The notes beneath the pieces are model-generated. The model worked only from the letters and a program-made list of their open reading frames with translations. It made no database searches and was not told where the DNA came from. Positions 3,583-42,301 of a stretch of 64,000 nt of DNA are shown here, one piece after another (positions within the stretch are counted from its first letter, which is position 1; each line of letters opens with the position of its first letter). Location: the sequence record OP172792. One strand, given 5' to 3'. Origin of the DNA: Escherichia phage ECO340P2. The position numbers were made by a program, and so were the translations under genes.

Positions 3583-3969
3583 TTATTCAATATAAATCAA
3601 ATTATCTTCACCAATGTAAGCCGACACGTTCGGCATAAACTTAGCTGCATTGGTTAGGCGGTTGGCTGTGTTAGTGGTGTATATTTCAGGGCGATCCCAA
3701 AAGCCTACGCCGTGACCGTTACGGGTAAAATGTAAATCATTCCCGATCTGGTTGGCTGTTGCGCCGTCGCTCATTGCCTCAGAGATAGCGGCAAGATTAG
3801 CATTAATAAAGGCTGTTACATCCTGGGCGATCCGTTGATCTGCGCTAGGAGAAAAATCATAATCGTCTAAGTTATCAATAAAATTACCTTCATGATCCCT
3901 TGCTGATTCAGCAAAAATAAAGGCTTCTTTATAGCCGTTGATGATTTCAATAATGATTTCTGTTTTCAT
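3583..3969 (-). CDS. hypothetical early protein
   Basis: ORF; start overlaps stop of upstream gene (translational coupling). Confidence 0.55.
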   Translation of the reverse strand: MKTEIIIEIINGYKEAFIFAESARDHEGNFIDNLDDYDFSPSADQRIAQDVTAFINANLAAISEAMSDGATANQIGNDLHFTRNGHGVGFWDRPEIYTTNTANRLTNAAKFMPNVSAYIGEDNLIYIE

Positions 3970-4817: not shown

Positions 4818-5102
4818 CTATTTTTTAATGTTTTGCCCTACAAAATCGATCACTTCCTTAAGCTGTCTCTCTGTCATGATCGTACCTGGTAACTCTTCTT
4901 TAATTTCTTCCGGTAAATAGATATTACCGCGCCAGGTTAACAAACAACCGTTTTGATCTTCGCAGATAGAATAAGAAAACATCCACTCGCAATCATTTTC
5001 AAGCTCCCAAAAACACAAAAAGTCTTCTTTCCCTAAGTTTTCAACGGTTAAACATAATCCGCGACGTGCTGCATAATTAGTTAGGCTTTTTGTGATTTTC
5101 AT
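4818..5102 (-). CDS. hypothetical early protein
   Basis: track ORF trimmed to ATG 5102 with AGAAGAGAGAAAAA RBS. Confidence 0.5.
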   Translation of the reverse strand: MKITKSLTNYAARRGLCLTVENLGKEDFLCFWELENDCEWMFSYSICEDQNGCLLTWRGNIYLPEEIKEELPGTIMTERQLKEVIDFVGQNIKK

Positions 5103-30463: not shown

Positions 30464-31069
30464 ATGCAACATAGTGTAGTAGTTAACATGCCAAATAACG
30501 GGGATAAATCTTTTGGTATCCCTGCTAAAAAAGTGTGGAAAGCCCATTTTCATCTTACTTTATCTAACGTTAGTTCTGAAGAGTTGATGGAAGCAGCTAA
30601 GATCATTGGTGCCAAATGCACAACAATTGATTTACATCGGGATACAAAGTCTCAACGTGATCGTATGCTAACAAAGTATCAAAGCGATCTCGACACTACT
30701 TTAATGTTGCAGTGTGTAGAAAAACTTGAGAATGCAGGTTTCAATGTTGTTCGTTACAAACTGGAACGAATGTTTAAACATGTTGCCTGTGTTCTTTTCA
30801 TGGATCTAAGTAAAGAAAATTATGGAGAAGTTCACATTAAGACTTCAGCAAGTGATCCTGAAGTAGAAACAAACTTCTTCCGTATTTCTTCTAATGTTGA
30901 AGAAATTGACTACCGATTTTATAATGCTCGCTTATATTCCGCAGAAGATAAGTTGCGTTTCAATGAAGCATATGATATGCTCTTGAACAGCGGGATACAG
31001 ATAAAAGGCTACCACATAGAACAAGTTGTGGTAGACAGTAACTTAAATCTTGATGCATGGTGGGCCTAA
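30464..31069 (+). CDS. hypothetical protein (weak 2H-phosphoesterase-like HxTx motif)
   Basis: single HLTL motif near N-terminus; second motif not canonical. Confidence 0.45.
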   Translation: MQHSVVVNMPNNGDKSFGIPAKKVWKAHFHLTLSNVSSEELMEAAKIIGAKCTTIDLHRDTKSQRDRMLTKYQSDLDTTLMLQCVEKLENAGFNVVRYKLERMFKHVACVLFMDLSKENYGEVHIKTSASDPEVETNFFRISSNVEEIDYRFYNARLYSAEDKLRFNEAYDMLLNSGIQIKGYHIEQVVVDSNLNLDAWWA

Positions 31070-31070
31070 T

Positions 31071-31727
31071 ATGACAATAAAACATATCTCTTTTGATGTA
31101 TGGAACACTCTTATTTCTACCAATCAAAACTATGCAGATGCACGTACGCATACTATCGCCACTTATGGTAGAATGTCTGAACGTGCAGCCAAAGAAGCAT
31201 ACAAAGATGCCAAAGAAATCATGGATAATGCTGCACTAAATGGGTGTGCAGAGGGTGTAGCATATGCATGGAATATGTTGGGAAGAAAGATAGGTTTAAC
31301 CCCTGTAGAATCTGCACAAATGCGTTTTGAGTGTGAACAATGGTTTCTTAAATTTCCTCCACATATTGCCTTAGATTTGCCAGTTTGTTTGCTATATTTG
31401 TCTGGTAAATATGACCTTAGTATTAAAAGCAATACTAATTTTATATCTGGGGATATTTTGCGTCGTGCTTGTATGTTTGACAGTTGGAATTGTTTTGAAT
31501 TTATGCATTTTTCAGACGAACATCTGTTGTGTAAACCAGATCCTAGATTCTTTGTTAGGACAGCCACATATTCAAGCATTCCTTTGAGGGCTGAAGAGAT
31601 TTTACATGTTGGGGACAGCGAAGAATTTGATGGTAAATGTGTTGACATAGGGATTAACTTCTGTCATATTAAGAACCCTAACGACTTACTAGAGAAACTT
31701 AAAAGAGGAGAAATTGTAAATGCGTAA
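31071..31727 (+). CDS. HAD-superfamily hydrolase (phosphatase-like)
   Basis: HAD motifs: FDVWNTL (I), SIKSN (II), KPDP (III), VGDSEEFD (IV). Confidence 0.65.
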   Translation: MTIKHISFDVWNTLISTNQNYADARTHTIATYGRMSERAAKEAYKDAKEIMDNAALNGCAEGVAYAWNMLGRKIGLTPVESAQMRFECEQWFLKFPPHIALDLPVCLLYLSGKYDLSIKSNTNFISGDILRRACMFDSWNCFEFMHFSDEHLLCKPDPRFFVRTATYSSIPLRAEEILHVGDSEEFDGKCVDIGINFCHIKNPNDLLEKLKRGEIVNA

Positions 31728-32547
31728 TCAAACTCAAATTTTTGCAAACAAATTTGATGATCTGGAAACTGCTACTTTTGATATCAAAGACTATTCAAAA
31801 TTGAAATTTGGTAGTAACCAGGCTGCGCGTCGTATGGGTAAAGAATTGGCCCTTCAGTTTTTTGCTCAAGTAGCAATGAAACATATTGGGGAACAATTTG
31901 TTATCATCCCTTCTCCTTATAACCATGTGCATAATGCTGCAACAATGATGACAGATCATTTTATTAATTACTTTAATATGTTGCAAGCACAATATGATCA
32001 AGGTCGTTCAGCAGAACTGGATATTATTCATCGTAAAGTTAGCTATATCAACGATTATGGTTTCTTGGATAAAGCTAGTCGTAAGAAACTTATTGATGGG
32101 GATACATTCTACTGCAACAAAGAATTCTGGGGTGATAAGAAGCTTGTGTTCATTGATGATGTAAATATCACTGGAACTCATGAAGACAAACTGATTGAGA
32201 TCCTTGATGAAAATCAAGTTAAAAATGATGTTTACTTCTTGTATTTTGCAAAATATGAAGGTAATCAAGCAGATACCGAAGCTAAACTGAATTTTAACTA
32301 TATTAATACACCAGAAGCATTTGTTAAAATGATTAATGAAGAACGTGATGCACAGTGTCTTGTTCGTCCTATTAAGTATCTTATGGGTCAAAATCACGAA
32401 GACTTCAAAATCATTCTTAGCCAATTGCCACACTACTATGTAGAGCAGCTTTTCTTCGGATGTTTGGGAGAAGGTTACAACCGAATTGCAAAGTATGCTG
32501 AAAACTTTGAGTTCTTGGATCGTTACACAAAACAACATATTCTGTGA
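31720..32547 (+). CDS. type I phosphoribosyltransferase-fold protein
   Basis: PRPP-binding loop KLVFIDDVNITGTHEDK. Confidence 0.6.
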   Translation: MRNQTQIFANKFDDLETATFDIKDYSKLKFGSNQAARRMGKELALQFFAQVAMKHIGEQFVIIPSPYNHVHNAATMMTDHFINYFNMLQAQYDQGRSAELDIIHRKVSYINDYGFLDKASRKKLIDGDTFYCNKEFWGDKKLVFIDDVNITGTHEDKLIEILDENQVKNDVYFLYFAKYEGNQADTEAKLNFNYINTPEAFVKMINEERDAQCLVRPIKYLMGQNHEDFKIILSQLPHYYVEQLFFGCLGEGYNRIAKYAENFEFLDRYTKQHIL

Positions 32548-32560
32548 TAAGGATCTAAAA

Positions 32561-33046
32561 ATGCTTAAAATGAAAACAGGTAATCTTATTGATGCCGCTA
32601 AAGCAGGGGAAGTAACGGTTATTGCTCATTGTTGTAATTGTATGTGTAACATGGGGGCAGGTATTGCCCCACAAATAAAATATGCGTTTCCATATGCATA
32701 CGAAGCAGATTTAGCTACAGGAGCAGGAAACCAGAAAAAGCTTGGTTCTTTTAGTTTAGGAGAACCAGAAGATTATCCTAATCCTATGGTATACAACCTT
32801 TATGGACAATATCGTTATGGATATAATAGTAAAGGTCGTCAATTAGATTATGATGCACTGTATGATGCTCTTGCAGCTATGGCAATGGACTTACACAATT
32901 ACGATAAAGGAGATCAACCAGCACATAAGATTGGTCTACCTATGATAGGTGCAGGTCATGCTGGAGGTAATTGGGCTATCATTGAAGTCATGATCAAAGA
33001 AACTTTAGTAAAAGCTGGTCACGATGTGACTATTTATAAACTTTAA
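32561..33046 (+). CDS. macro-domain protein (TARG1/Poa1p/DarG-like)
   Basis: VIAHCCNCMCNMGAGIAPQIKYAF matches recalled TARG1-type macro signature (hC.s.d..MGaGIA..F). Confidence 0.65.
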   Translation: MLKMKTGNLIDAAKAGEVTVIAHCCNCMCNMGAGIAPQIKYAFPYAYEADLATGAGNQKKLGSFSLGEPEDYPNPMVYNLYGQYRYGYNSKGRQLDYDALYDALAAMAMDLHNYDKGDQPAHKIGLPMIGAGHAGGNWAIIEVMIKETLVKAGHDVTIYKL

Positions 33047-33604: not shown

Positions 33605-34579
33605 ATGCAACTTGGTTTCCCAATTATTGATGTAGTTGTTTTAGTTGGTATTTTAGCATTGTCTATTGGTATCGATTTCTTTGGTCATAAAGAAAATAAA
33701 GAAATTGGAATCAAATCTGCTTTGCTTTGGTCTGTTTTTTGGATTGCTTTAGCTTTAGGGTATTACGCATTCATTTGGGTAGAACATGGTAAAGAATTTG
33801 CCGCGCTTTTCCTAAGTGGTTATGTGTTGGAAAAGAGTCTTTCTGTAGATAACCTAATGGTGTTCATGGCAATTTTTGCAAGCTTTGGAATTAAAAGCAC
33901 ACATCTCCAACATAAGATCTTACTTTGGGGGATTGCAGGAGCCATTGTCTTCCGAGGTATTTTTGTTGCAGCAGGCACCGCTTTGTTTAACCTTCATTGG
34001 TCGGTCCAAGTGTTGTTTGGTCTGATTGTAGCTTGGTCTGCCGTTGCTATTATCAAAGGGGGTGACGAAGAAGAGGATATTGATTACTCTAAACATTGGG
34101 CTGTTCGTTTAGTAGGTAAAGTTCTGCCTATGCACAATGCACTGGATGGTGAAAAGTTCATTACTATTAAGAATAGTATTAAATATGCAACCCCTGCTCT
34201 TCTTTGTGTGTTTGTTATTGAGCTTACAGATATTGTCTTCTCTTTTGATTCAGTTCCGGCTGTGATTGGTGTGACACAAGAACCTCTGCTAGTTTATTCT
34301 GCAATGCTGATGGCTGTTCTTGGCCTACGTGCACTTTTCTTTGTGTTAAGTGTAGCTGTGAAATATTTGGTTCACTTAGAGAAAGCTGTTGCTGTGGTTC
34401 TGGTGTTTGTTGGTGCTAAACTTATGTATCACCCGTTCGGTGAAACACTTCATGCCAAGTGGTCATTCCTCCCGCATGATATCTCTCCTAACGTAAGTTT
34501 AATGATTGTTCTAGGCACATTAGCTCTTGGTGTTATTGCAAGCTTTATCTTTCCTGAAAAAGAAGAAGCCACTGTTTAA
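33605..34579 (+). CDS. terC: TerC-family integral membrane protein
   Basis: multiple TM helices; SLSVDNLMVF and ELTDIVFSFDSVPAVIGVT signatures. Confidence 0.8.
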   Translation: MQLGFPIIDVVVLVGILALSIGIDFFGHKENKEIGIKSALLWSVFWIALALGYYAFIWVEHGKEFAALFLSGYVLEKSLSVDNLMVFMAIFASFGIKSTHLQHKILLWGIAGAIVFRGIFVAAGTALFNLHWSVQVLFGLIVAWSAVAIIKGGDEEEDIDYSKHWAVRLVGKVLPMHNALDGEKFITIKNSIKYATPALLCVFVIELTDIVFSFDSVPAVIGVTQEPLLVYSAMLMAVLGLRALFFVLSVAVKYLVHLEKAVAVVLVFVGAKLMYHPFGETLHAKWSFLPHDISPNVSLMIVLGTLALGVIASFIFPEKEEATV

Positions 34580-35607: not shown

Positions 35608-36201
35608 ATGACAATTTCTATTCGTACTTCCATCGTAGGTGTTAAAAGGTTGCCTAATGCTTTGCAAATCACACGTGCTTTGAGGGATACGTTCTCTGCT
35701 GTGGATGAGCATAAAATGCTTGATAATCTCTCAAATTGGCCCTATTTTCATTATTTTAAAAATGAAGATGACGAGTTTATAGATGCTGTTTCTTATGGTT
35801 ATGATTTCGGTAAGGAGGTTTCTCCTGAAGAATTTGTAGCTACGGTATTCCCAAATGGTTTTCCTACTCGCAGCAAACGTAAAAAAGGACCAAAAAACAA
35901 GAAACGTGCTATTAATAAAGCTACCATTTTCTTTACTGATGGGACACAGTATACGATTAAAGATTTTGAAGAAGTATCTTATACAGCAGGTGGAAATCTT
36001 TCTTTCTACACCATCAAAAAACAAAACGCTACGTTCAGCCATGTTTCTAACATGATTGAAATGTTAGTAGAAGATATTGAAAGCGTGGCTGTGTTAGGTA
36101 TGCATAAAAGCTTTTTAATTACAAATATTTCAGATTTCAGTGCACGTTTATCTAGCCCTGATTTTGAAGCCACGACCACGCATTTCACTTTTAAGGTGTA
36201 A
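35608..36201 (+). CDS. hypothetical protein
   Basis: ORF with AAGGAG RBS. Confidence 0.55.
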   Translation: MTISIRTSIVGVKRLPNALQITRALRDTFSAVDEHKMLDNLSNWPYFHYFKNEDDEFIDAVSYGYDFGKEVSPEEFVATVFPNGFPTRSKRKKGPKNKKRAINKATIFFTDGTQYTIKDFEEVSYTAGGNLSFYTIKKQNATFSHVSNMIEMLVEDIESVAVLGMHKSFLITNISDFSARLSSPDFEATTTHFTFKV

Positions 36202-36204
36202 GTT

Positions 36205-36795
36205 ATGTATACCGAGAGAGACTTGCAACTCTTGTGGTGGGAAGTGATGCAGGAAATAAAAGAAGATTTTCCTGTTTACTACAACATGTTACGTGAAGCA
36301 GGATATAAAGCTTGCGTTAGAAACAAAGTGAATAACTCTTTTGGTTGGTGCAACTACCGAGATAAAATTGTTGTTGTAAATTGGCACTTGCATAAGAACT
36401 CTACAAGAGATATGATCGTGGATACAATGAAGCATGAAATTGCTCATGCTATTGATGGTTGTATGGGTAAGTTTAGTAGGCACGGTGCTCATTGGCAAAA
36501 ACTGGCAGCAGAATTAGGGGCTAATCCTAAAGCCACTTCCAAAGAGCCGTTGAACCACGAATATAAATATGTTCTTGTTCTGGTAGATAGGTTTGCGACA
36601 AGGTGTGTTAGAGGTTATAATCGTAAACCTAATCGCATGTACCCAGGTAAGCAACCTAATATGTGGTTGAAATCAGATAAAGAAGGGACCGAAGGAAAAT
36701 TATGGTTGTATAAATGGGACGATTGGGTTAAAGTAGCTAAAGAGTACGGTGTTTCACCATATATAAGAGATGCAGAAGAGGAGAATGAAGAATGA
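36205..36795 (+). CDS. SprT-like zinc metallopeptidase-domain protein
   Basis: HEIAHAIDG (HExxH) followed by HGAHW. Confidence 0.55.
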   Translation: MYTERDLQLLWWEVMQEIKEDFPVYYNMLREAGYKACVRNKVNNSFGWCNYRDKIVVVNWHLHKNSTRDMIVDTMKHEIAHAIDGCMGKFSRHGAHWQKLAAELGANPKATSKEPLNHEYKYVLVLVDRFATRCVRGYNRKPNRMYPGKQPNMWLKSDKEGTEGKLWLYKWDDWVKVAKEYGVSPYIRDAEEENEE

Positions 36796-37904
36796 CAAGT
36801 CCATTTTTAAAAGCAGCTACTGGTGGTCAGAAGAAGTCTGAAATGAGTGTATTCGCTGCAACAACAGATGCAAGTAAATCTGTATTCGCGCCAAGCGTGT
36901 TAGATGCCAGTCCTGTTTATGCACCAGCCGCACCGCAAGAAGTCCCAGTTTTGCCTTCTATGACCCGACAAGAGATCGAAGAGATTGGGGCAGAGGCAGG
37001 AACAACCTTGCGTTCCTTGAATGCCGAGGTATTAAAACATCAACGTAGTAATCAAGGCGATCAGATGAGTGAACGACTCACAGCTTTGATTAAACAGGCA
37101 AAACAACTTGATCCAAACTCTATTAAACAAAGCAAGGGTATTACTAAACTCATTAAAAAGGTCATGGGTATGAAAGAAGACCTGTTCGGGGAGTTTGATA
37201 ATGTTAATAACCGTATTGAAGAGTTAGTAAAGAACCTTCAAATGGATATTCGCAAAGAAGAAGATTCCTTAGTATATCTTGAAAAACTACATCAAGCTAT
37301 TGGACAATATGCTGCAAGTTTGAACCGAGATATGCAGCTTCTAACAGCAACCTATGAAAAAGAAGAGCAAGCTTTGGCTGCTCTTCCAGAAGATGCAGTA
37401 GAACAGCGACAAGTGATCCGAGATACTTTGGATCTTCTGGAGATTCGTATTGCGGATTTAAAAGCATTGCGCCTACTGTGTGTCCAAATGGGACCACGTG
37501 TACAAGGTATGCAAAAAGTTTCTGCAAGCTTAATGCGATCTGCGCGTAACATAGTAAATAATGTTATCCCTGCTTACTCTGCTAACTTCTCAATGTATAT
37601 TGAGAGCTTACGTCAAATGAAAGCCGCAGAAACACAGAATAACGTTCTTGATGAATTTAACCTGGCAATTAAATTAGGTAGTGATTTGGCTACACAAAAT
37701 CAGATTGAAGCCGCAGCATTGGCTAACCGTCAAGTGTTAGATATTGATACTCTGCGACACGATCAGGAAAACTTAGTTAAAATGCTGGAAGAAACAAATC
37801 GCATCAATACAGAAGCCCGTGCTGCTCGTGTTGATTATATTAATGAAGTTCAATCTCTGGAAGACGGGATGGTAGCTGCTGTAAAACGAGGACTTGGTAA
37901 ATGA
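36792..37904 (+). CDS. helical protein, possibly TelA/KlaA-like toxic-anion-resistance family
   Basis: 370-aa largely helical protein within Ter-like cluster; family call from context and composition only. Confidence 0.35.
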   Translation: MTSPFLKAATGGQKKSEMSVFAATTDASKSVFAPSVLDASPVYAPAAPQEVPVLPSMTRQEIEEIGAEAGTTLRSLNAEVLKHQRSNQGDQMSERLTALIKQAKQLDPNSIKQSKGITKLIKKVMGMKEDLFGEFDNVNNRIEELVKNLQMDIRKEEDSLVYLEKLHQAIGQYAASLNRDMQLLTATYEKEEQALAALPEDAVEQRQVIRDTLDLLEIRIADLKALRLLCVQMGPRVQGMQKVSASLMRSARNIVNNVIPAYSANFSMYIESLRQMKAAETQNNVLDEFNLAIKLGSDLATQNQIEAAALANRQVLDIDTLRHDQENLVKMLEETNRINTEARAARVDYINEVQSLEDGMVAAVKRGLGK

Positions 37905-38095
37905 GAATCCGTGTTTATATGATTGATGATAGCTTTGGTGTCCGTTATGATGACGAAAAACGATTCGCGCCGATTAGCGGCATACATCCCCTAAGTGTTT
38001 TGGCAGCTTGTCGTGATAAATATCTCTATGAAGCTTGTAATCATTTTGGTTTTGAGCTTCTTTCAGATGTAGAGTTTAATGAGGAGGAAGGATGA
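37901..38095 (+). CDS. hypothetical small protein
   Basis: ORF, coupled. Confidence 0.5.
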   Translation: MRIRVYMIDDSFGVRYDDEKRFAPISGIHPLSVLAACRDKYLYEACNHFGFELLSDVEFNEEEG

Positions 38096-38265
38096 AAATA
38101 TTACGCGTGAATATTGAAACCGCTTGGTGCGGATGTAATGAGGTTGTGGATATTGAAATTGAAGATGATATGTCTAAAGAGGATATAGAAGATCTTGCAC
38201 ACGAAACCTTTCAGGACTATTGTAGCTATGGGTTCCATATTTTAGAGGAGGAAGAAGATGTATAA
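38092..38265 (+). CDS. hypothetical small acidic protein (57 aa)
   Basis: hand-translated ORF with GAGGAGGAAGG RBS. Confidence 0.45.
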   Translation: MKILRVNIETAWCGCNEVVDIEIEDDMSKEDIEDLAHETFQDYCSYGFHILEEEEDV

Positions 38266-38656
38266 TCCAACAGGTATTCTTTTAAAACTCACAGTAACAG
38301 ATCCTACTCTTTTCACCAAGTTAGTCAGTGGTGAAGTCTATGAAGTAATGAAAGATGACGACGGTTGGTGTTATCTTTGTGGCTACTACCTCTGTGATGC
38401 AGAAGAGTTAGAATCCATTACAACTAAAGGTTTTTATGAAGAACCAGGCTTCCGTGTGGAAACTACACAGAAACCTGATACCATTACGTTGACTCGACAG
38501 GAACTGATCACAATCATTGAAGATGCTTTTATTGATGGTTGGAATACACAAGATAATGATTGGGGTGGACCTGAAGCTTTTCTAGAACATCATAAAGCTT
38601 ACGGAGAATTTTGTGAAACCACTGTAGCTCTTGATAATCTGAAGGAGGGTTTGTAA
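38258..38656 (+). CDS. hypothetical protein
   Basis: ORF with GGAGGAAG RBS. Confidence 0.55.
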   Translation: MYNPTGILLKLTVTDPTLFTKLVSGEVYEVMKDDDGWCYLCGYYLCDAEELESITTKGFYEEPGFRVETTQKPDTITLTRQELITIIEDAFIDGWNTQDNDWGGPEAFLEHHKAYGEFCETTVALDNLKEGL

Positions 38657-39219
38657 TGGGTTGTTTTAGCTTTTTGTGTAAGGAATCGGGCAAAGCTGCC
38701 CTTTCTACTTCTTTCGACGGATCGCCTTGCTATCTCTTTCTTTTGAAAGATGGTGTTGTTATTGAAGAGATGTATGGCAACTACGATAGTTATGGTTGTG
38801 TTTTCTCTGGAAAGGAGGACGAAAATGGCGTTCGTGAACGGTTTGATTGGGTTATGGATTGGAGTAAGGTTTGTGATTTGATGCATTCCTCAAATCCAAG
38901 GGACGGTATCGCTATGGTGCTGGAAGAGTACTTTACAGGTGAAATCCCTACAGAACAATCTGACAGAGATCCTAACCAAGGTTGGGGTGATGGTGAAGAA
39001 GATCCAGATTGTTTTTTCAGCACAGAAAAGAATAAGTTTAAACGTGTTGACAACCCTTATCACAAAGTGCATAATACTCTCATTGAAACAGAAGATGACA
39101 AGATGGAAATTGAAGAAGATGATCCTCTTGTAACACTTCCTATAAGCGAGTTACAAAAGATTACTAAAGAAGCTTACGATTTGGGCTTCAAAATTGGTAG
39201 AGGAGGTATGCGTGTTTAG
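38656..39219 (+). CDS. hypothetical acidic protein
   Basis: ORF with GGAGGG RBS. Confidence 0.55.
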   Translation: MGCFSFLCKESGKAALSTSFDGSPCYLFLLKDGVVIEEMYGNYDSYGCVFSGKEDENGVRERFDWVMDWSKVCDLMHSSNPRDGIAMVLEEYFTGEIPTEQSDRDPNQGWGDGEEDPDCFFSTEKNKFKRVDNPYHKVHNTLIETEDDKMEIEEDDPLVTLPISELQKITKEAYDLGFKIGRGGMRV

Positions 39220-39484
39220 ATTCAATATTCAAGAAGAAAAGTATAAGGATTTACCTGTTCCTTTCGAAGATCTTGACGTAGGGGATACATTCATGTATTA
39301 TGCTGCCTATGAAGATGCAGGGTTGGATACTTACATTAATTTGGTGTTCATTAAAAGTTCTCCAAACAGCGCAATCTGCATCAGTGGATCGCAACGAGGT
39401 TATACACATTGTATCCCGCCAGATACAAATATGGTGGAAGTAGATTTAGAAGTTACCAATATCACACTTAAGAAGGAGAAATAA
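39194..39484 (+). CDS. hypothetical protein, paralog of 40506..40775
   Basis: shared DLDVGDTF motif and C-terminal ..VT(N/G)ITLK. Confidence 0.55.
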   Translation: MVEEVCVFRFNIQEEKYKDLPVPFEDLDVGDTFMYYAAYEDAGLDTYINLVFIKSSPNSAICISGSQRGYTHCIPPDTNMVEVDLEVTNITLKKEK

Positions 39485-39485
39485 T

Positions 39486-40280
39486 ATGTCCGAGAAAATC
39501 AGCCTGAAAAAACGTCAAGAAAACCTTGCTTTCTCTCTGAAAAAGAATAAGAACCTGAATGAAGGTAAGATTGTTCTTCGTGTAGCATGTGCTCTAGATA
39601 TTTCTGGTAGTATGCATGGTCTATATGCTCGTGGAGTAGTGAGTGATTTTGTAGGTAAACTGCTCCCTTTTGGTATGCTGTTCGACGATAATGAACAAAT
39701 TGATATGTGGGCCTTCAATACAAGTTCTCAAGAGCTTACTCCAGCAACAGCAGACGTTTACGATGATTATGTTGGTAAATGTATGCGTAATGTTCGTATC
39801 GGAGGTGGAACAAATTACGCCCCTGTAATGGCAGATATCTACGATGAGTATTTTGGCACTGTTACCAAATATATTACCACTAAACAAGTGGTACAAGAGG
39901 AGGCTCCAAAGAAAGGCTTCTTTAATCGTCTGCTTGGTAAAACTGAAACAGTATCTGTAGAGCGTGAAAAGGTTGTAGCTGTATCTGAACCAGGTGCTGA
40001 CGTTACCCCTGGTGTTGTATTCTTCCAGACGGATGGTGAGAATGGTGATCCTAGTGCTGTTCGTCGTCTTATTGAAGAGAATAAGAATAAACCTATTTAT
40101 TGGTTCATGGTTGGCGTCGGTAATGAGAAGTTTGGCTTCCTGAAAGAACTGGCAAATGCTTATGATAATGTTGGTTTTATTGGCATTAAAGATTTAGACT
40201 TGACAGATTCAGAGCTTTATGACAAACTCTTATCTGAAGAGTTCGGAGAGTGGGTTGTTAAAGTAGGTGCTAAAAAATGA
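39486..40280 (+). CDS. von Willebrand factor A (vWA) domain protein, TerY-like
   Basis: MIDAS motif ALDISGSMHG; N-terminal KISLKK shared with TerD gene. Confidence 0.65.
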   Translation: MSEKISLKKRQENLAFSLKKNKNLNEGKIVLRVACALDISGSMHGLYARGVVSDFVGKLLPFGMLFDDNEQIDMWAFNTSSQELTPATADVYDDYVGKCMRNVRIGGGTNYAPVMADIYDEYFGTVTKYITTKQVVQEEAPKKGFFNRLLGKTETVSVEREKVVAVSEPGADVTPGVVFFQTDGENGDPSAVRRLIEENKNKPIYWFMVGVGNEKFGFLKELANAYDNVGFIGIKDLDLTDSELYDKLLSEEFGEWVVKVGAKK

Positions 40281-40525
40281 TCGACGAGCTTGCCTCTCAA
40301 GTCGTAGAAAATTATTGGCGCGAGAGAGAAGCTTTCATTATGCGCAGTCTCAAAGAATATTTCATTGGGACTGTGCGGATGGAAGATATTGTAAGTAGAG
40401 TAGAGATTCATGTATGGCCTGATTATGAAGAATGGGTTGACAAAGAAAATGAAAATGCTATAATTCTTCGTATATACAAACCGGAGATAACATTAGGAGG
40501 AAGAAGTGTTAAACTTCGAAATTGA
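40277..40525 (+). CDS. hypothetical protein
   Basis: ORF, coupled. Confidence 0.5.
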   Translation: MIDELASQVVENYWREREAFIMRSLKEYFIGTVRMEDIVSRVEIHVWPDYEEWVDKENENAIILRIYKPEITLGGRSVKLRN

Positions 40526-40775
40526 TGAGCAAAAAATAAATAAACGATGCCTTACCATTAAAGATTTGGATGTAGGAGATACTTTCGTCTATGAAAATGC
40601 ATTTGACGAAAATGGTTTAGACCTTAGTGAAGTCATTGTTTATTTAAAAGTAGATGATGGGGAAAATGATTATTCTGCTGTAGAATTAAACCATCATGCA
40701 CAATTAGTAGCAATCCAAAACACATCTAAGCTTTTGGAAGTAGAATTGACTGTAACTGGTATTACACTTAAATAA
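40506..40775 (+). CDS. hypothetical protein, paralog of 39194..39484
   Basis: DLDVGDTF motif. Confidence 0.55.
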   Translation: MLNFEIDEQKINKRCLTIKDLDVGDTFVYENAFDENGLDLSEVIVYLKVDDGENDYSAVELNHHAQLVAIQNTSKLLEVELTVTGITLK

Positions 40776-40790
40776 TAGAGGAGACAAAAG

Positions 40791-41393
40791 ATGACTGATA
40801 AAATTTCCCTGAAAAAAGGCTCTAGCGAAAAAATTTCCCTGAAGAAAGTTGCTCCGGCTCTGAAAGAACTGCGCCTGGAATTCTCTTGGAAATCTGATTC
40901 TAAACTGGATCTGGATGTAAGTGCACTGGTTTGTCGTCATAATGCCGCTGGCAATCCTGAAATGCTGTCTGCACGTCATCTGGTTTGCTATGCTAACAAG
41001 TTTGATCCTGAACGTTCTACCTTTGCTGGTGACGATGTTCGTGATGGGACTGGCAGCATGGAGCAGATTGATATTACTCTGGCTAAAATCTCTCCCGATG
41101 CACAAGAGATTGCCTTTGTTCTGACCATTGATGATGATACAGGTCTGAAACGTTTTGGTCATGCTTCTGAAGGTATGCTTAAAATCTTCGACTCCGAGTG
41201 TAATGTGGAAATTCTGGATTTTGACTTCCTGGCTCCTGAAGTAGCTGGCAACACAATCTGCCACGTGGCTTCCTTGGTTCGTGAAGATGGTGAATGGAAG
41301 CTGAAAGCATATGGTGTAGGTAAAGCTGGTCTGGATATTTGTGATGTGGTGATGGCCTTCGGTGGTAAAAAAGAATGGTATGAATGTCCATAA
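40791..41393 (+). CDS. terD: TerD-domain stress protein
   Basis: KISLKKG...ISLKK, DLDVSAL, GDDVRDGTG, MLKIFDSE, C-terminal WK..A.G.G.AGL. Confidence 0.75.
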   Translation: MTDKISLKKGSSEKISLKKVAPALKELRLEFSWKSDSKLDLDVSALVCRHNAAGNPEMLSARHLVCYANKFDPERSTFAGDDVRDGTGSMEQIDITLAKISPDAQEIAFVLTIDDDTGLKRFGHASEGMLKIFDSECNVEILDFDFLAPEVAGNTICHVASLVREDGEWKLKAYGVGKAGLDICDVVMAFGGKKEWYECP

Positions 41394-41411
41394 TAATTAA
41401 CAAATGATTTT

Positions 41412-41435
41412 GAGGGGGGAGAAATCCCCCTCTTG
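41412..41435 (+). terminator. hairpin GAGGGGGgagaaatCCCCCTC after terD
   Basis: 7-bp G/C stem; weak T-run. Confidence 0.5.
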
Positions 41436-41461
41436 CAATAAAGCCTCTATCGTGTTATACT
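41433..41461 (+). promoter_or_regulatory. promoter TTGCAA-N17-TATACT
   Basis: hexamers read directly. Confidence 0.5.
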
Positions 41462-41493
41462 AGAAGTTCGTTAACTTAAAAAGGAGGCAAAAT

Positions 41494-42015
41494 TTGCTGA
41501 TAAAAAACTTTGTAACAGTTGCGTTACTATCCTTAACTGCTTTTACATTTACACCTGTTGTGGCGAAAGCCGAAGCTGCAAACGTAAAAACCGCTAAAGT
41601 AGTTCACAAATGTACAAAGCAATATAATGATAAAATTCTATTAGCTTGTGCAATTTACGCAGAAGGTCGCGGTCTGGGTAAAAAAGGAATGAATGCCGTT
41701 GGGAATGTGGTAATCAATAGAAGAAATGATGCCTACTTTCCTAACACAGTCAGAGGAGTCTTGTTCCAGAAAGGACAATTTTCATATGCGAAAACTTTTA
41801 ACGTAACAGAGAAAGATAAGTGGCAGGAAGCAAAAGCAATAGCGGAGCGTTTACTTTATTTAGAGAAACATTTTCCTGAATTGCGATCTGTTTTAGATGT
41901 TACTAAAGGTGCTCTATACTTCAAGAAACGGAATATAAGGACACACTGGGAACGCGATATGCGTCTTGTTTATCGAGATAAAGTGCATGGTTTCTATCTA
42001 CCAAAGGAGAGTTAA
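41494..42015 (+). CDS. secreted cell-wall hydrolase, SleB/CwlJ-like (Hydrolase_2)
   Basis: signal peptide; CAIYAEGRG...GNVVINR...VRGVLFQKGQFS; TTG start after AGGAGG. Confidence 0.6.
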   Translation: MLIKNFVTVALLSLTAFTFTPVVAKAEAANVKTAKVVHKCTKQYNDKILLACAIYAEGRGLGKKGMNAVGNVVINRRNDAYFPNTVRGVLFQKGQFSYAKTFNVTEKDKWQEAKAIAERLLYLEKHFPELRSVLDVTKGALYFKKRNIRTHWERDMRLVYRDKVHGFYLPKES

Positions 42016-42016
42016 A

Positions 42017-42301
42017 ATGCAAGAAGATAATACTGTTGTTGTAGCAAGTTACCTGGTTGTCGGTCTTACCGAAGAGGATGTATACTACACCCGTAAACAT
42101 TTGGAAGCATACGCTACTTTGTTTATGGAAGATGAAAAGGATGTAGATAAATATAGCATTGATATGATCAACGACAGTATTTATCCTTGTATGGTTCTTA
42201 AAGTAGATGCTGTGTTGTGGGAGCGTTTTGCAAGGACTCATGATGCTGTAGAATGCTCCGCAGTAATGTCTCAAAACAACATTTTAGGGGAGATTCACTG
42301 A
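42017..42301 (+). CDS. hypothetical protein
   Basis: track ORF trimmed to ATG 42017. Confidence 0.5.
   Translation: MQEDNTVVVASYLVVGLTEEDVYYTRKHLEAYATLFMEDEKDVDKYSIDMINDSIYPCMVLKVDAVLWERFARTHDAVECSAVMSQNNILGEIH

Follow-up and report, generated by a model that had tools for sequence, protein, structure and literature searches.

Escherichia phage ECO340P2 (sequence record OP172792) was analyzed over a stretch of 64,000 nucleotides (nt), here called the window, which belongs to a Phapecoctavirus, a phAPEC8-like coliphage of the Stephanstirmvirinae. Within a Ter-like gene cluster the window contains two small genes, sA and sB, each placed directly ahead of a Ter gene: sA precedes the gene for a vWA-TerF-like protein, sB precedes the gene for a TerD-domain protein, and an open reading frame (ORF) of 82 amino acids (aa) lies between the vWA gene and sB (Table 1). 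A first-pass annotation of this DNA had taken the arrangement for a tandem duplication of a two-gene module, consisting of a small gene and a gene for a protein that begins with (E/D)KISLKK, followed by divergence of the second gene. Our work points to a different history in which only the small gene was copied. The reading that we favor, with some reservation, is that sA and sB are old, phage-restricted paralogues that form an optional accessory of the TerD/vWA pair.

sA and sB are paralogues

Both small ORFs singled out by the first-pass annotation are real, each encodes the DLDVGDTF motif, and the resemblance it had drawn between them holds up in formal alignment. The two proteins align by BLASTP over their full length with 30 of 89 residues identical (34%; Expect value [E] of 6e-15), and both match phrog_11278 from end to end, sA with an E of 3.3e-43 and sB with an E of 8.2e-44. 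Hence, sA and sB are true paralogues. The similarity of the DNA is weak (60% over 331 nt); it starts at the ribosome-binding site, spans the whole small gene, and ends ~10 codons into the gene that follows. The most likely start of sA is the GTG at 39212 rather than the TTG at 39194 from which the first-pass annotation had read it, because the annotation of relatives implies the same start and this codon is homologous to the GTG of sB; the start context is common to both genes (AGGAGG, then 5 to 6 nt, then GTG TT. A.. TTC). The stop codon of sA is separated by 1 nt from the vWA start, and that of sB by 15 nt from the TerD start.

The sA protein is 100% identical to a database protein of Escherichia phage ECO340P2 and 63% identical to gp174 of phage phi92. 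Relative to the 92-aa proteins of the five relatives examined (SKA64, ASO2A, phAPEC8, anhysbys, and WPEC6), the gene in the window has lost two codons and reads ISGSQRG instead of ISGSLSQRG in a predicted loop. The phrog_11278 entry (function unknown) carries neither functional nor contextual annotation; the link to TerD and vWA, the fold, and the duplication history are added by the present analysis. Literature searches found no paper on the sA and sB genes.

The genes downstream of sA and sB belong to different families

As the first-pass annotation had noted, each small gene is followed by a gene whose product starts with (E/D)KISLKK: the vWA-TerF-like protein begins MSEKISLKK and TerD begins MTDKISLKK, which gives the consensus M-x-(E/D)-KISLKK. 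The pattern K[IVL]SLKK occurs three times in the six-frame ORF segments (51,584 residues), always at the vWA and TerD N termini, and because it is absent elsewhere in the window's reading frames it is not a chance match. However, the two proteins are members of different Pfam families. The vWA-TerF-like protein matches PF10138 (E of 1.3e-37; 130.4 bits versus a gathering cutoff of 29.4) and has the DxSxS metal-site motif as ALDISGSM, in which D38-I-S40-G-S42 is conserved in 17 homologues and D38 and S42 are invariant, whereas TerD matches PF02342 (E of 9.2e-28; 97.4 bits versus a gathering cutoff of 25.3). BLASTP aligns only the first ~20 N-terminal residues of one with the other.

Klebsiella TerD binds Ca2+. 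Residues 5 to 183 of the window's TerD align to the solved structures 2KXT (Klebsiella TerD; E of 3.3e-15) and 3IBZ (E of 3.4e-14), and its N terminus, KISLKKGSSEKISLKK, aligns to VSLSKGG--NVSLSK, residues 3 to 15 of 2KXT; this segment is the canonical start of the TerD domain, its first β-strand pair. The vWA-TerF-like protein has a basic TerD-like element, KISLKK...FSLKK, in its residues 1 to 30, outside the PF10138 model, which begins at residue 31. All homologues inspected have the two-part form of this element (phi-x-L-x-K, 4 to 6 residues, phi-x-L-x-K) ahead of the vWA domain, whether they are phage proteins, stand-alone bacterial proteins (e.g., Neobacillus MTVIDLTKKAKIVLEKK), or TerD-vWA fusions; in TerF-type fusions it sits between the TerD and vWA domains. 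A profile of the vWA N terminus aligns with positions 1 to 21 of the TerD profile (hhalign probability of 75%; E of 2.5e-5; 21 columns); short as this similarity is, it is suggestive of homology between the vWA N-terminal element and the TerD N terminus. The window's vWA protein is of the TerF-type family, and the fusions P0099 and P0100 have the same element just before the vWA domain. TerD and vWA are fused in TerF, whereas here they are encoded by separate genes and the vWA protein retains only the ~30-residue TerD-like N-terminal element. Within one phage, the hydrophobic residue of the motif (I, V, or L) tends to agree between vWA and TerD, with I/I in the window, V/V in locus L008, and L/L in locus L010.

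How much, then, was duplicated? A module could have been copied in two ways: either the small gene and its KISLKK protein gene were duplicated in tandem and one of the second genes diverged or was replaced, or a vWA-s unit (s denoting the small gene) was duplicated to give vWA-s-vWA-s-TerD, from which the first vWA gene was then deleted. Both versions can draw on the weak DNA alignment, which reaches the first ~10 codons of the next gene, and on the N-terminal motif common to the downstream proteins, and the second path produces the observed order from the widespread order vWA-s-TerD. However, vWA and TerD show no similarity past ~20 residues, neither small gene is flanked by a remnant of vWA or TerD, and the upstream neighbors of sA differ between lineages (the 187-aa gene, a remnant thereof, gene_122, or an unrelated ORF). 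The Ser codons of the motif also differ between the two genes (AGC versus TCC), which argues against a recent DNA copy. The version with divergence of the second gene is already contradicted by relatives that have a single small gene (phi92, Klebsiella phage 05F01, and loci L005 to L009) or none (L024, L028, and L035) and whose vWA and TerD proteins both carry the element, and by bacterial vWA-TerF-like proteins and TerD-vWA fusions, which have it too. Nor do the copies stand in tandem, since the vWA gene and the 82-aa ORF, the latter not mentioned in the first-pass annotation, separate sA from sB. The vWA gene is already the neighbor of TerD in single-copy and zero-copy relatives. Because the shared element and the vWA-TerD neighborhood predate the duplication, we conclude that only the small gene was copied and consider the duplication of a whole module improbable. 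As an old trait that both families have, the (E/D)KISLKK start is uninformative on whether a duplication took place in this phage.

Gene order in relatives and history of the duplication

The order sA-vWA-x80-sB-TerD is found in phage phiWec179 and in the metagenomic loci L012 and L013, and the order s-vWA-TerD in phi92 (Justusliebigvirus) and Klebsiella phage 05F01. A search of the INPHARED database returned two places per record in phAPEC8-like rows and one in phi92-like rows. Further loci (L005 to L011 and L014) were reached via distant members of the small-protein family that came from an exhaustive search with hidden Markov models (HMMs). These have vWA-s-TerD (L006, L007, L008, L009, and probably L014, where the upstream ORF was judged by eye to be the truncated 3' end of a vWA gene), s-TerD (L005), or vWA-s-s-TerD (L010 and L011, where the extra 90-aa protein is a family member). 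In all nine contexts recovered from distant members, the small gene abuts vWA and/or TerD, and vWA-s-TerD is the most widespread order among the relatives. In L010 and L011 (positions 1180 to 1725 and 257 to 802, respectively), which represent a distant lineage of metagenomic phages, the two copies stand directly in tandem and stem from an independent duplication. The small gene has thus been duplicated at least twice, in separate events in Phapecoctavirus and in L010/L011.

In a neighbor-joining tree, the pre-vWA copies are monophyletic (bootstrap 84), with phi92 and 05F01 included, and the pre-TerD copies of Phapecoctavirus group together (bootstrap 59). Since the pre-vWA clade includes phi92 and 05F01, the duplication predates the split between Phapecoctavirus and Justusliebigvirus. 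Of the two positions, the one ahead of TerD is the more widespread, and the copy located there is probably ancestral. We hypothesize that the ancestral order was probably vWA-s-TerD and that a second copy of the small gene was placed 5' of vWA in the Stephanstirmvirinae ancestor, before the genera split. Phapecoctavirus would then have retained both copies, and the phi92-like and Klebsiella 05F01-like phages would have lost the pre-TerD copy.

The small proteins are acidic and have a predicted SH3-like fold

The small-protein family, with acidic members of 87 to 93 aa, is restricted to phages and to the TerD/vWA cluster. The exhaustive HMM search of 1.84 billion representative proteins retrieved only ~20 small homologues, along with motif-level matches in Ig-like repeat proteins. 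The top hits among these giant proteins match mostly through a DVDVG(D/E)T-x-Y motif, present in up to 22 repeats, with He_PIG and DUF11/DUF7507 Ig-like domains; a few of the matches extend over 50 to 60 positions. We rejected a degenerate Ig-like (He_PIG/DUF11) origin of the family because the match is that of a motif amplified by repeats, there is no Ig-like Pfam match, and the predicted fold is not a sandwich. Pfam gave nothing above curated cutoffs for sA or sB, the lone match being DUF5006 for sB (E of 0.045; 13.3 versus 34.1 bits).

AlphaFold predicts an SH3-like β-barrel. With 9 sequences only one of five models was confident; with 18 sequences all five models of sB had a predicted local distance difference test score of 85 to 88 (best, 87.7) and a predicted template modeling score of 0.79, and two independent runs agreed on the fold. 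The model of sB combines a hairpin at the N terminus with a short helix and a barrel of five strands, and it may be set beside small adaptor domains of the SH3-like kind, such as FeoA and the DtxR/IdeR C-terminal domain. All structural neighbors in the BFVD database are uncharacterized phage proteins. Across the 18 sequences the core residues G24, F27, G37, and K48 are conserved, and fold and key residues are kept down to ~25% identity. The net charge of the small proteins is between -2 and -11 in all 16 members (16/16), and the first 22 residues of every vWA or TerD partner carry +4 to +7, while the overall isoelectric point of the partners is ~5. This charge complementarity would be compatible with an interaction between the small protein and its partner, although it proves nothing.

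Two clusters contain other small ORFs with an F-E-x-G-D-V-(L/I) motif (L015, 2495 to 2758; L035, 2121 to 2399). They have no detectable similarity to sA or sB and might encode unrelated small barrel proteins.

Each small gene appears to have its own promoter-like site

Judged by the sequence, each small gene seems to follow a promoter-like site of its own and to stand immediately before a Ter gene. The first site, P1, is located 137 nt 5' of sA and is conserved in phi92 (locus L002, ~4836 to 4864) and in phiWec179 (locus L003, ~3648 to 3676, within the intergenic region 3638 to 3706). Only ~20 codons of the 187-aa gene are left in phiWec179, and this remnant still contains the P1 site, which suggests that it is the promoter, and not the ORF, that is retained. 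The second site, P2, sits 42 nt before the sB start. Its hexamers are perfectly conserved in L001 (10450), L003 (4935), L012 (4935), and L013 (1020), with a variable spacer, and they are invariant in three diverged lineages although the 82-aa proteins encoded there are only ~58 to 60% identical.

The cistrons overlap or are 1 to 15 nt apart. The 82-aa ORF overlaps vWA at its stop codon (ATGA) and also runs into the start of sB, and it is found only in lineages with both small genes; its product is 58 to 60% identical in phiWec179 and L012. Comparison with the small-gene family and with the other cluster proteins revealed no similarity. An origin of this ORF from the 187-aa gene's 3' end, which would point to a larger duplicated segment, was rejected (BLASTP E of 0.62). 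Downstream of TerD, a G+C-rich hairpin (Table 1) is the probable end of the transcription unit, as judged from its sequence. In phage ASO2A the corresponding site carries the annotation of a rho-independent terminator; a simple terminator scan passed over the hairpin of the window, the T-run being short.

This tight packing raises the question of whether the small ORFs are chiefly translated leaders that bring ribosomes to the vWA and TerD starts, the proteins themselves being of little importance. Indeed, the last codons of sA (AAG AAG GAG AAA) double as the Shine-Dalgarno sequence for vWA and end 1 nt ahead of the vWA ATG, the 15 nt between sB and TerD contain GGAG, and both small genes lie 3' of promoter-like sites. 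However, the confidently predicted, conserved globular fold and the conserved core residues point to selection at the protein level, and relatives express vWA and TerD without such a leader. We therefore regard a mere leader function as very unlikely.

The small gene is probably an optional accessory of the TerD/vWA pair

Where it is present, no more than 20 nt separate the small gene from vWA or TerD in any of the contexts examined, and it was never found elsewhere. To see how often it is present, we used the vWA protein as bait in the IMG/VR database, which gave an unbiased sample of 23 loci that we scanned with the HMMs built here. The gene is an accessory of the TerD/vWA pair and not a core component, and it is dispensable for the cluster.

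Several observations weigh against the reading that we favor. Only 4 of the 23 vWA-containing viral loci have the small gene (L023, on both sides of vWA; L026 and L031, before vWA; and L027, before TerD), and 19 lack it. It is absent from the close relatives L024 and L025 (vWA 65 to 68% identical), and absence is also reported for L028 to L035 (vWA 48 to 57% identical; a range that takes in the carrier L031). It is likewise missing from all sampled loci with a vWA protein at most 40% identical, from the 144-kb phage contig L015, and from the bacterial or prophage loci L016 and L018. A search with hmmsearch --max for cryptic family members beside vWA or TerD in more distant phage and bacterial loci found none. 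All carriers are related phages, and the conserved adjacency may in part reflect common descent. The deep nodes of the tree have bootstrap values of only 34 to 46, and the proposed order of events, like the choice between gain by transfer and loss, is a parsimony argument. Finally, among six Phapecoctavirus genomes the ratio of nonsynonymous to synonymous substitution rates (dN/dS) of sB is 1.68, a value that comes from very few substitutions (dS of only 0.006) and is too small in numbers to interpret.

The other genes of the region have a dN/dS of 0.17 (sA), 0.14 (82-aa ORF), 0.06 (vWA), and 0.02 (TerD). In sB the dS of 0.006 compares with 0.06 to 0.09 in the flanking genes, and nonsynonymous changes outnumber synonymous ones; this could reflect a recent sweep or recombination, constraint at the nucleotide level, or the noise of small numbers. 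At greater evolutionary distance the small proteins change much faster than the proteins encoded beside them: compared with their phiWec179 counterparts, sA of the window is 52% and sB 42% identical, versus 73% for vWA and 90% for TerD.

Could it be that nothing functional ties the small genes to TerD and vWA? They might be fast-evolving accessory ORFs at a permissive insertion site or a promoter-proximal site, and their adjacency inherited synteny. Such a view would account for the patchy distribution with frequent loss among close relatives, for the fast divergence and the dN/dS of sB, and for the fact that the carriers are all in one broad phage group with the order TelA...vWA-TerD-hydrolase. 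However, the small gene has moved (pre-vWA versus pre-TerD) and has been duplicated repeatedly, always staying next to vWA or TerD while other neighbors changed, and no family member was found in another context. Moreover, fold and key residues are conserved across distant members, and sA is under purifying selection. On balance we judge the lack of a functional tie to be rather unlikely, even if it is the alternative to be taken most seriously. The conserved gene order provides circumstantial support for a functional link of the small protein with TerD and vWA. The partnership at which the first-pass annotation had hinted is plausible in view of the conserved adjacency, the repeated duplication, and the shared expression architecture, a view tempered by the dispensability of the gene.

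Possible role of the small proteins

If sA and sB are indeed accessories of the TerD/vWA pair, the likeliest role of the small protein, as far as sequence comparison can suggest one, would be that of an accessory binding partner or modulator. We hypothesize that the promoter-like site and the tight packing cause a small gene and the Ter gene that follows it to be made together. The acidic SH3-like protein would then bind its neighbor, possibly via the shared basic N-terminal element, and act as an adaptor, assembly factor, or modulator of a TerD/vWA complex. After the duplication, one copy could have specialized for each partner.

A more specific version, which we offer as speculation with a low chance of being right, holds that the small proteins are phage-specific subunits docking on the K-phi-S-L-K-K (twice) element common to TerD and vWA-TerF-like proteins, and that this element is the handle that brings both into a single assembly, also in bacteria. 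If so, sA and sB would be one adaptor split into two partner-specific ones, and the docking would offer a first molecular clue to the assembly of Ter components. The TerD-like N-terminal element of vWA-TerF-like proteins may in itself hint at the way in which these proteins and TerD come together.

Clusters of the Ter/TelA/TerD type are widespread among bacteria and large phages, and their mechanism is poorly understood; the small protein would be a cheap experimental handle on the role that TerD and vWA play in the phage. What is added here to an already known type of phage gene cluster is modest and incremental, because the gene is dispensable in many related phages, the genus is well sequenced, and the genes have already been deposited as hypothetical.

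Genomic setting

The Ter stress-response and tellurite-resistance neighborhoods were reportedly defined by Anantharaman, Iyer, and Aravind in 2012. In the window, the cluster genes between 31050 and 42015 are all on the plus strand (Table 1), and TerC, TelA, TerD, the vWA-TerF-like protein, and a phosphoribosyltransferase (PRTase) are co-located, together with a weak HAD match. Ter-type neighborhoods have previously been described for bacteria and some phages (Iyer et al., 2021, PMC7824862; phage phiKp34, PMC8386662), and the component set of the window matches theirs, tailed phages included. However, neither a small SH3-like protein nor the 82-aa ORF is in the component lists of PMC7824862 and PMC8386662. 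PADLOC models gave zero matches for sA, sB, vWA, the 82-aa ORF, TerD, TelA, and the 187-aa protein.

Table 1. Features of the Ter-like cluster in the window
Feature	Position	Strand	Basis or remark
HAD-like weak match	31050-31727	+	Pfam, below curated cutoff
PRTase_3 (ComF-like PRTase)	31720-32547	+	Pfam and phage SKA64 annotation
Macro-domain weak match	32486-33046	+	Pfam, below curated cutoff
TerC	33605-34579	+	Pfam and phage SKA64 annotation
SprT-like	36205-36795	+	Pfam and phage SKA64 annotation
TelA	36792-37904	+	Pfam and phage SKA64 annotation
Several small ORFs	Interval from TelA to 187-aa gene	+	
187-aa protein	38656-39219	+	phrog_14928
Promoter-like site P1	39047-39075	+	TTGACA-17-CATAAT, 11/12 match to consensus; inside 187-aa gene
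sA, small acidic protein, 90 aa	39212-39484	+	GTG start; pre-vWA copy of phrog_11278
vWA-TerF-like protein, 264 aa	39486-40280	+	PF10138
TerD-like N-terminal element of vWA	39486-39575	+	Residues 1 to 30
82-aa ORF	40277-40525	+	phrog_22387
Promoter-like site P2	40437-40464	+	TTGACA-16-TATAAT, 12/12 match to sigma-70 consensus, TG 5' of -10; inside 82-aa ORF
sB, small acidic protein, 89 aa	40506-40775	+	GTG start; pre-TerD copy of phrog_11278
TerD-domain protein, 200 aa	40791-41393	+	PF02342
G+C-rich hairpin after TerD	41412-41432	+	GAGGGGG...CCCCCTC, read from sequence
SleB-like cell wall hydrolase	41494-42015	+	

The region from 36000 to 42100 is matched by 62 deposited phage genome records at 95 to 99% identity, and 64 records span at least 80% of this query. 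Among the matches listed, nearly all are E. coli phages of the phAPEC8 type, and the deposited records label the genes of interest nearly always as hypothetical proteins. The record of Acinetobacter phage vB_AbaM_ABPW7 carries the cluster and is 96% identical to the E. coli phage region, and its host label looks doubtful. The same is true for the host labels of the Campylobacter phages A150 and A110a, which have the same cluster with an sB identity within the phi92-like range. A 186-aa ORF antisense to TerD (40704-41264, minus strand) is probably a mechanical artifact of the ORF list.

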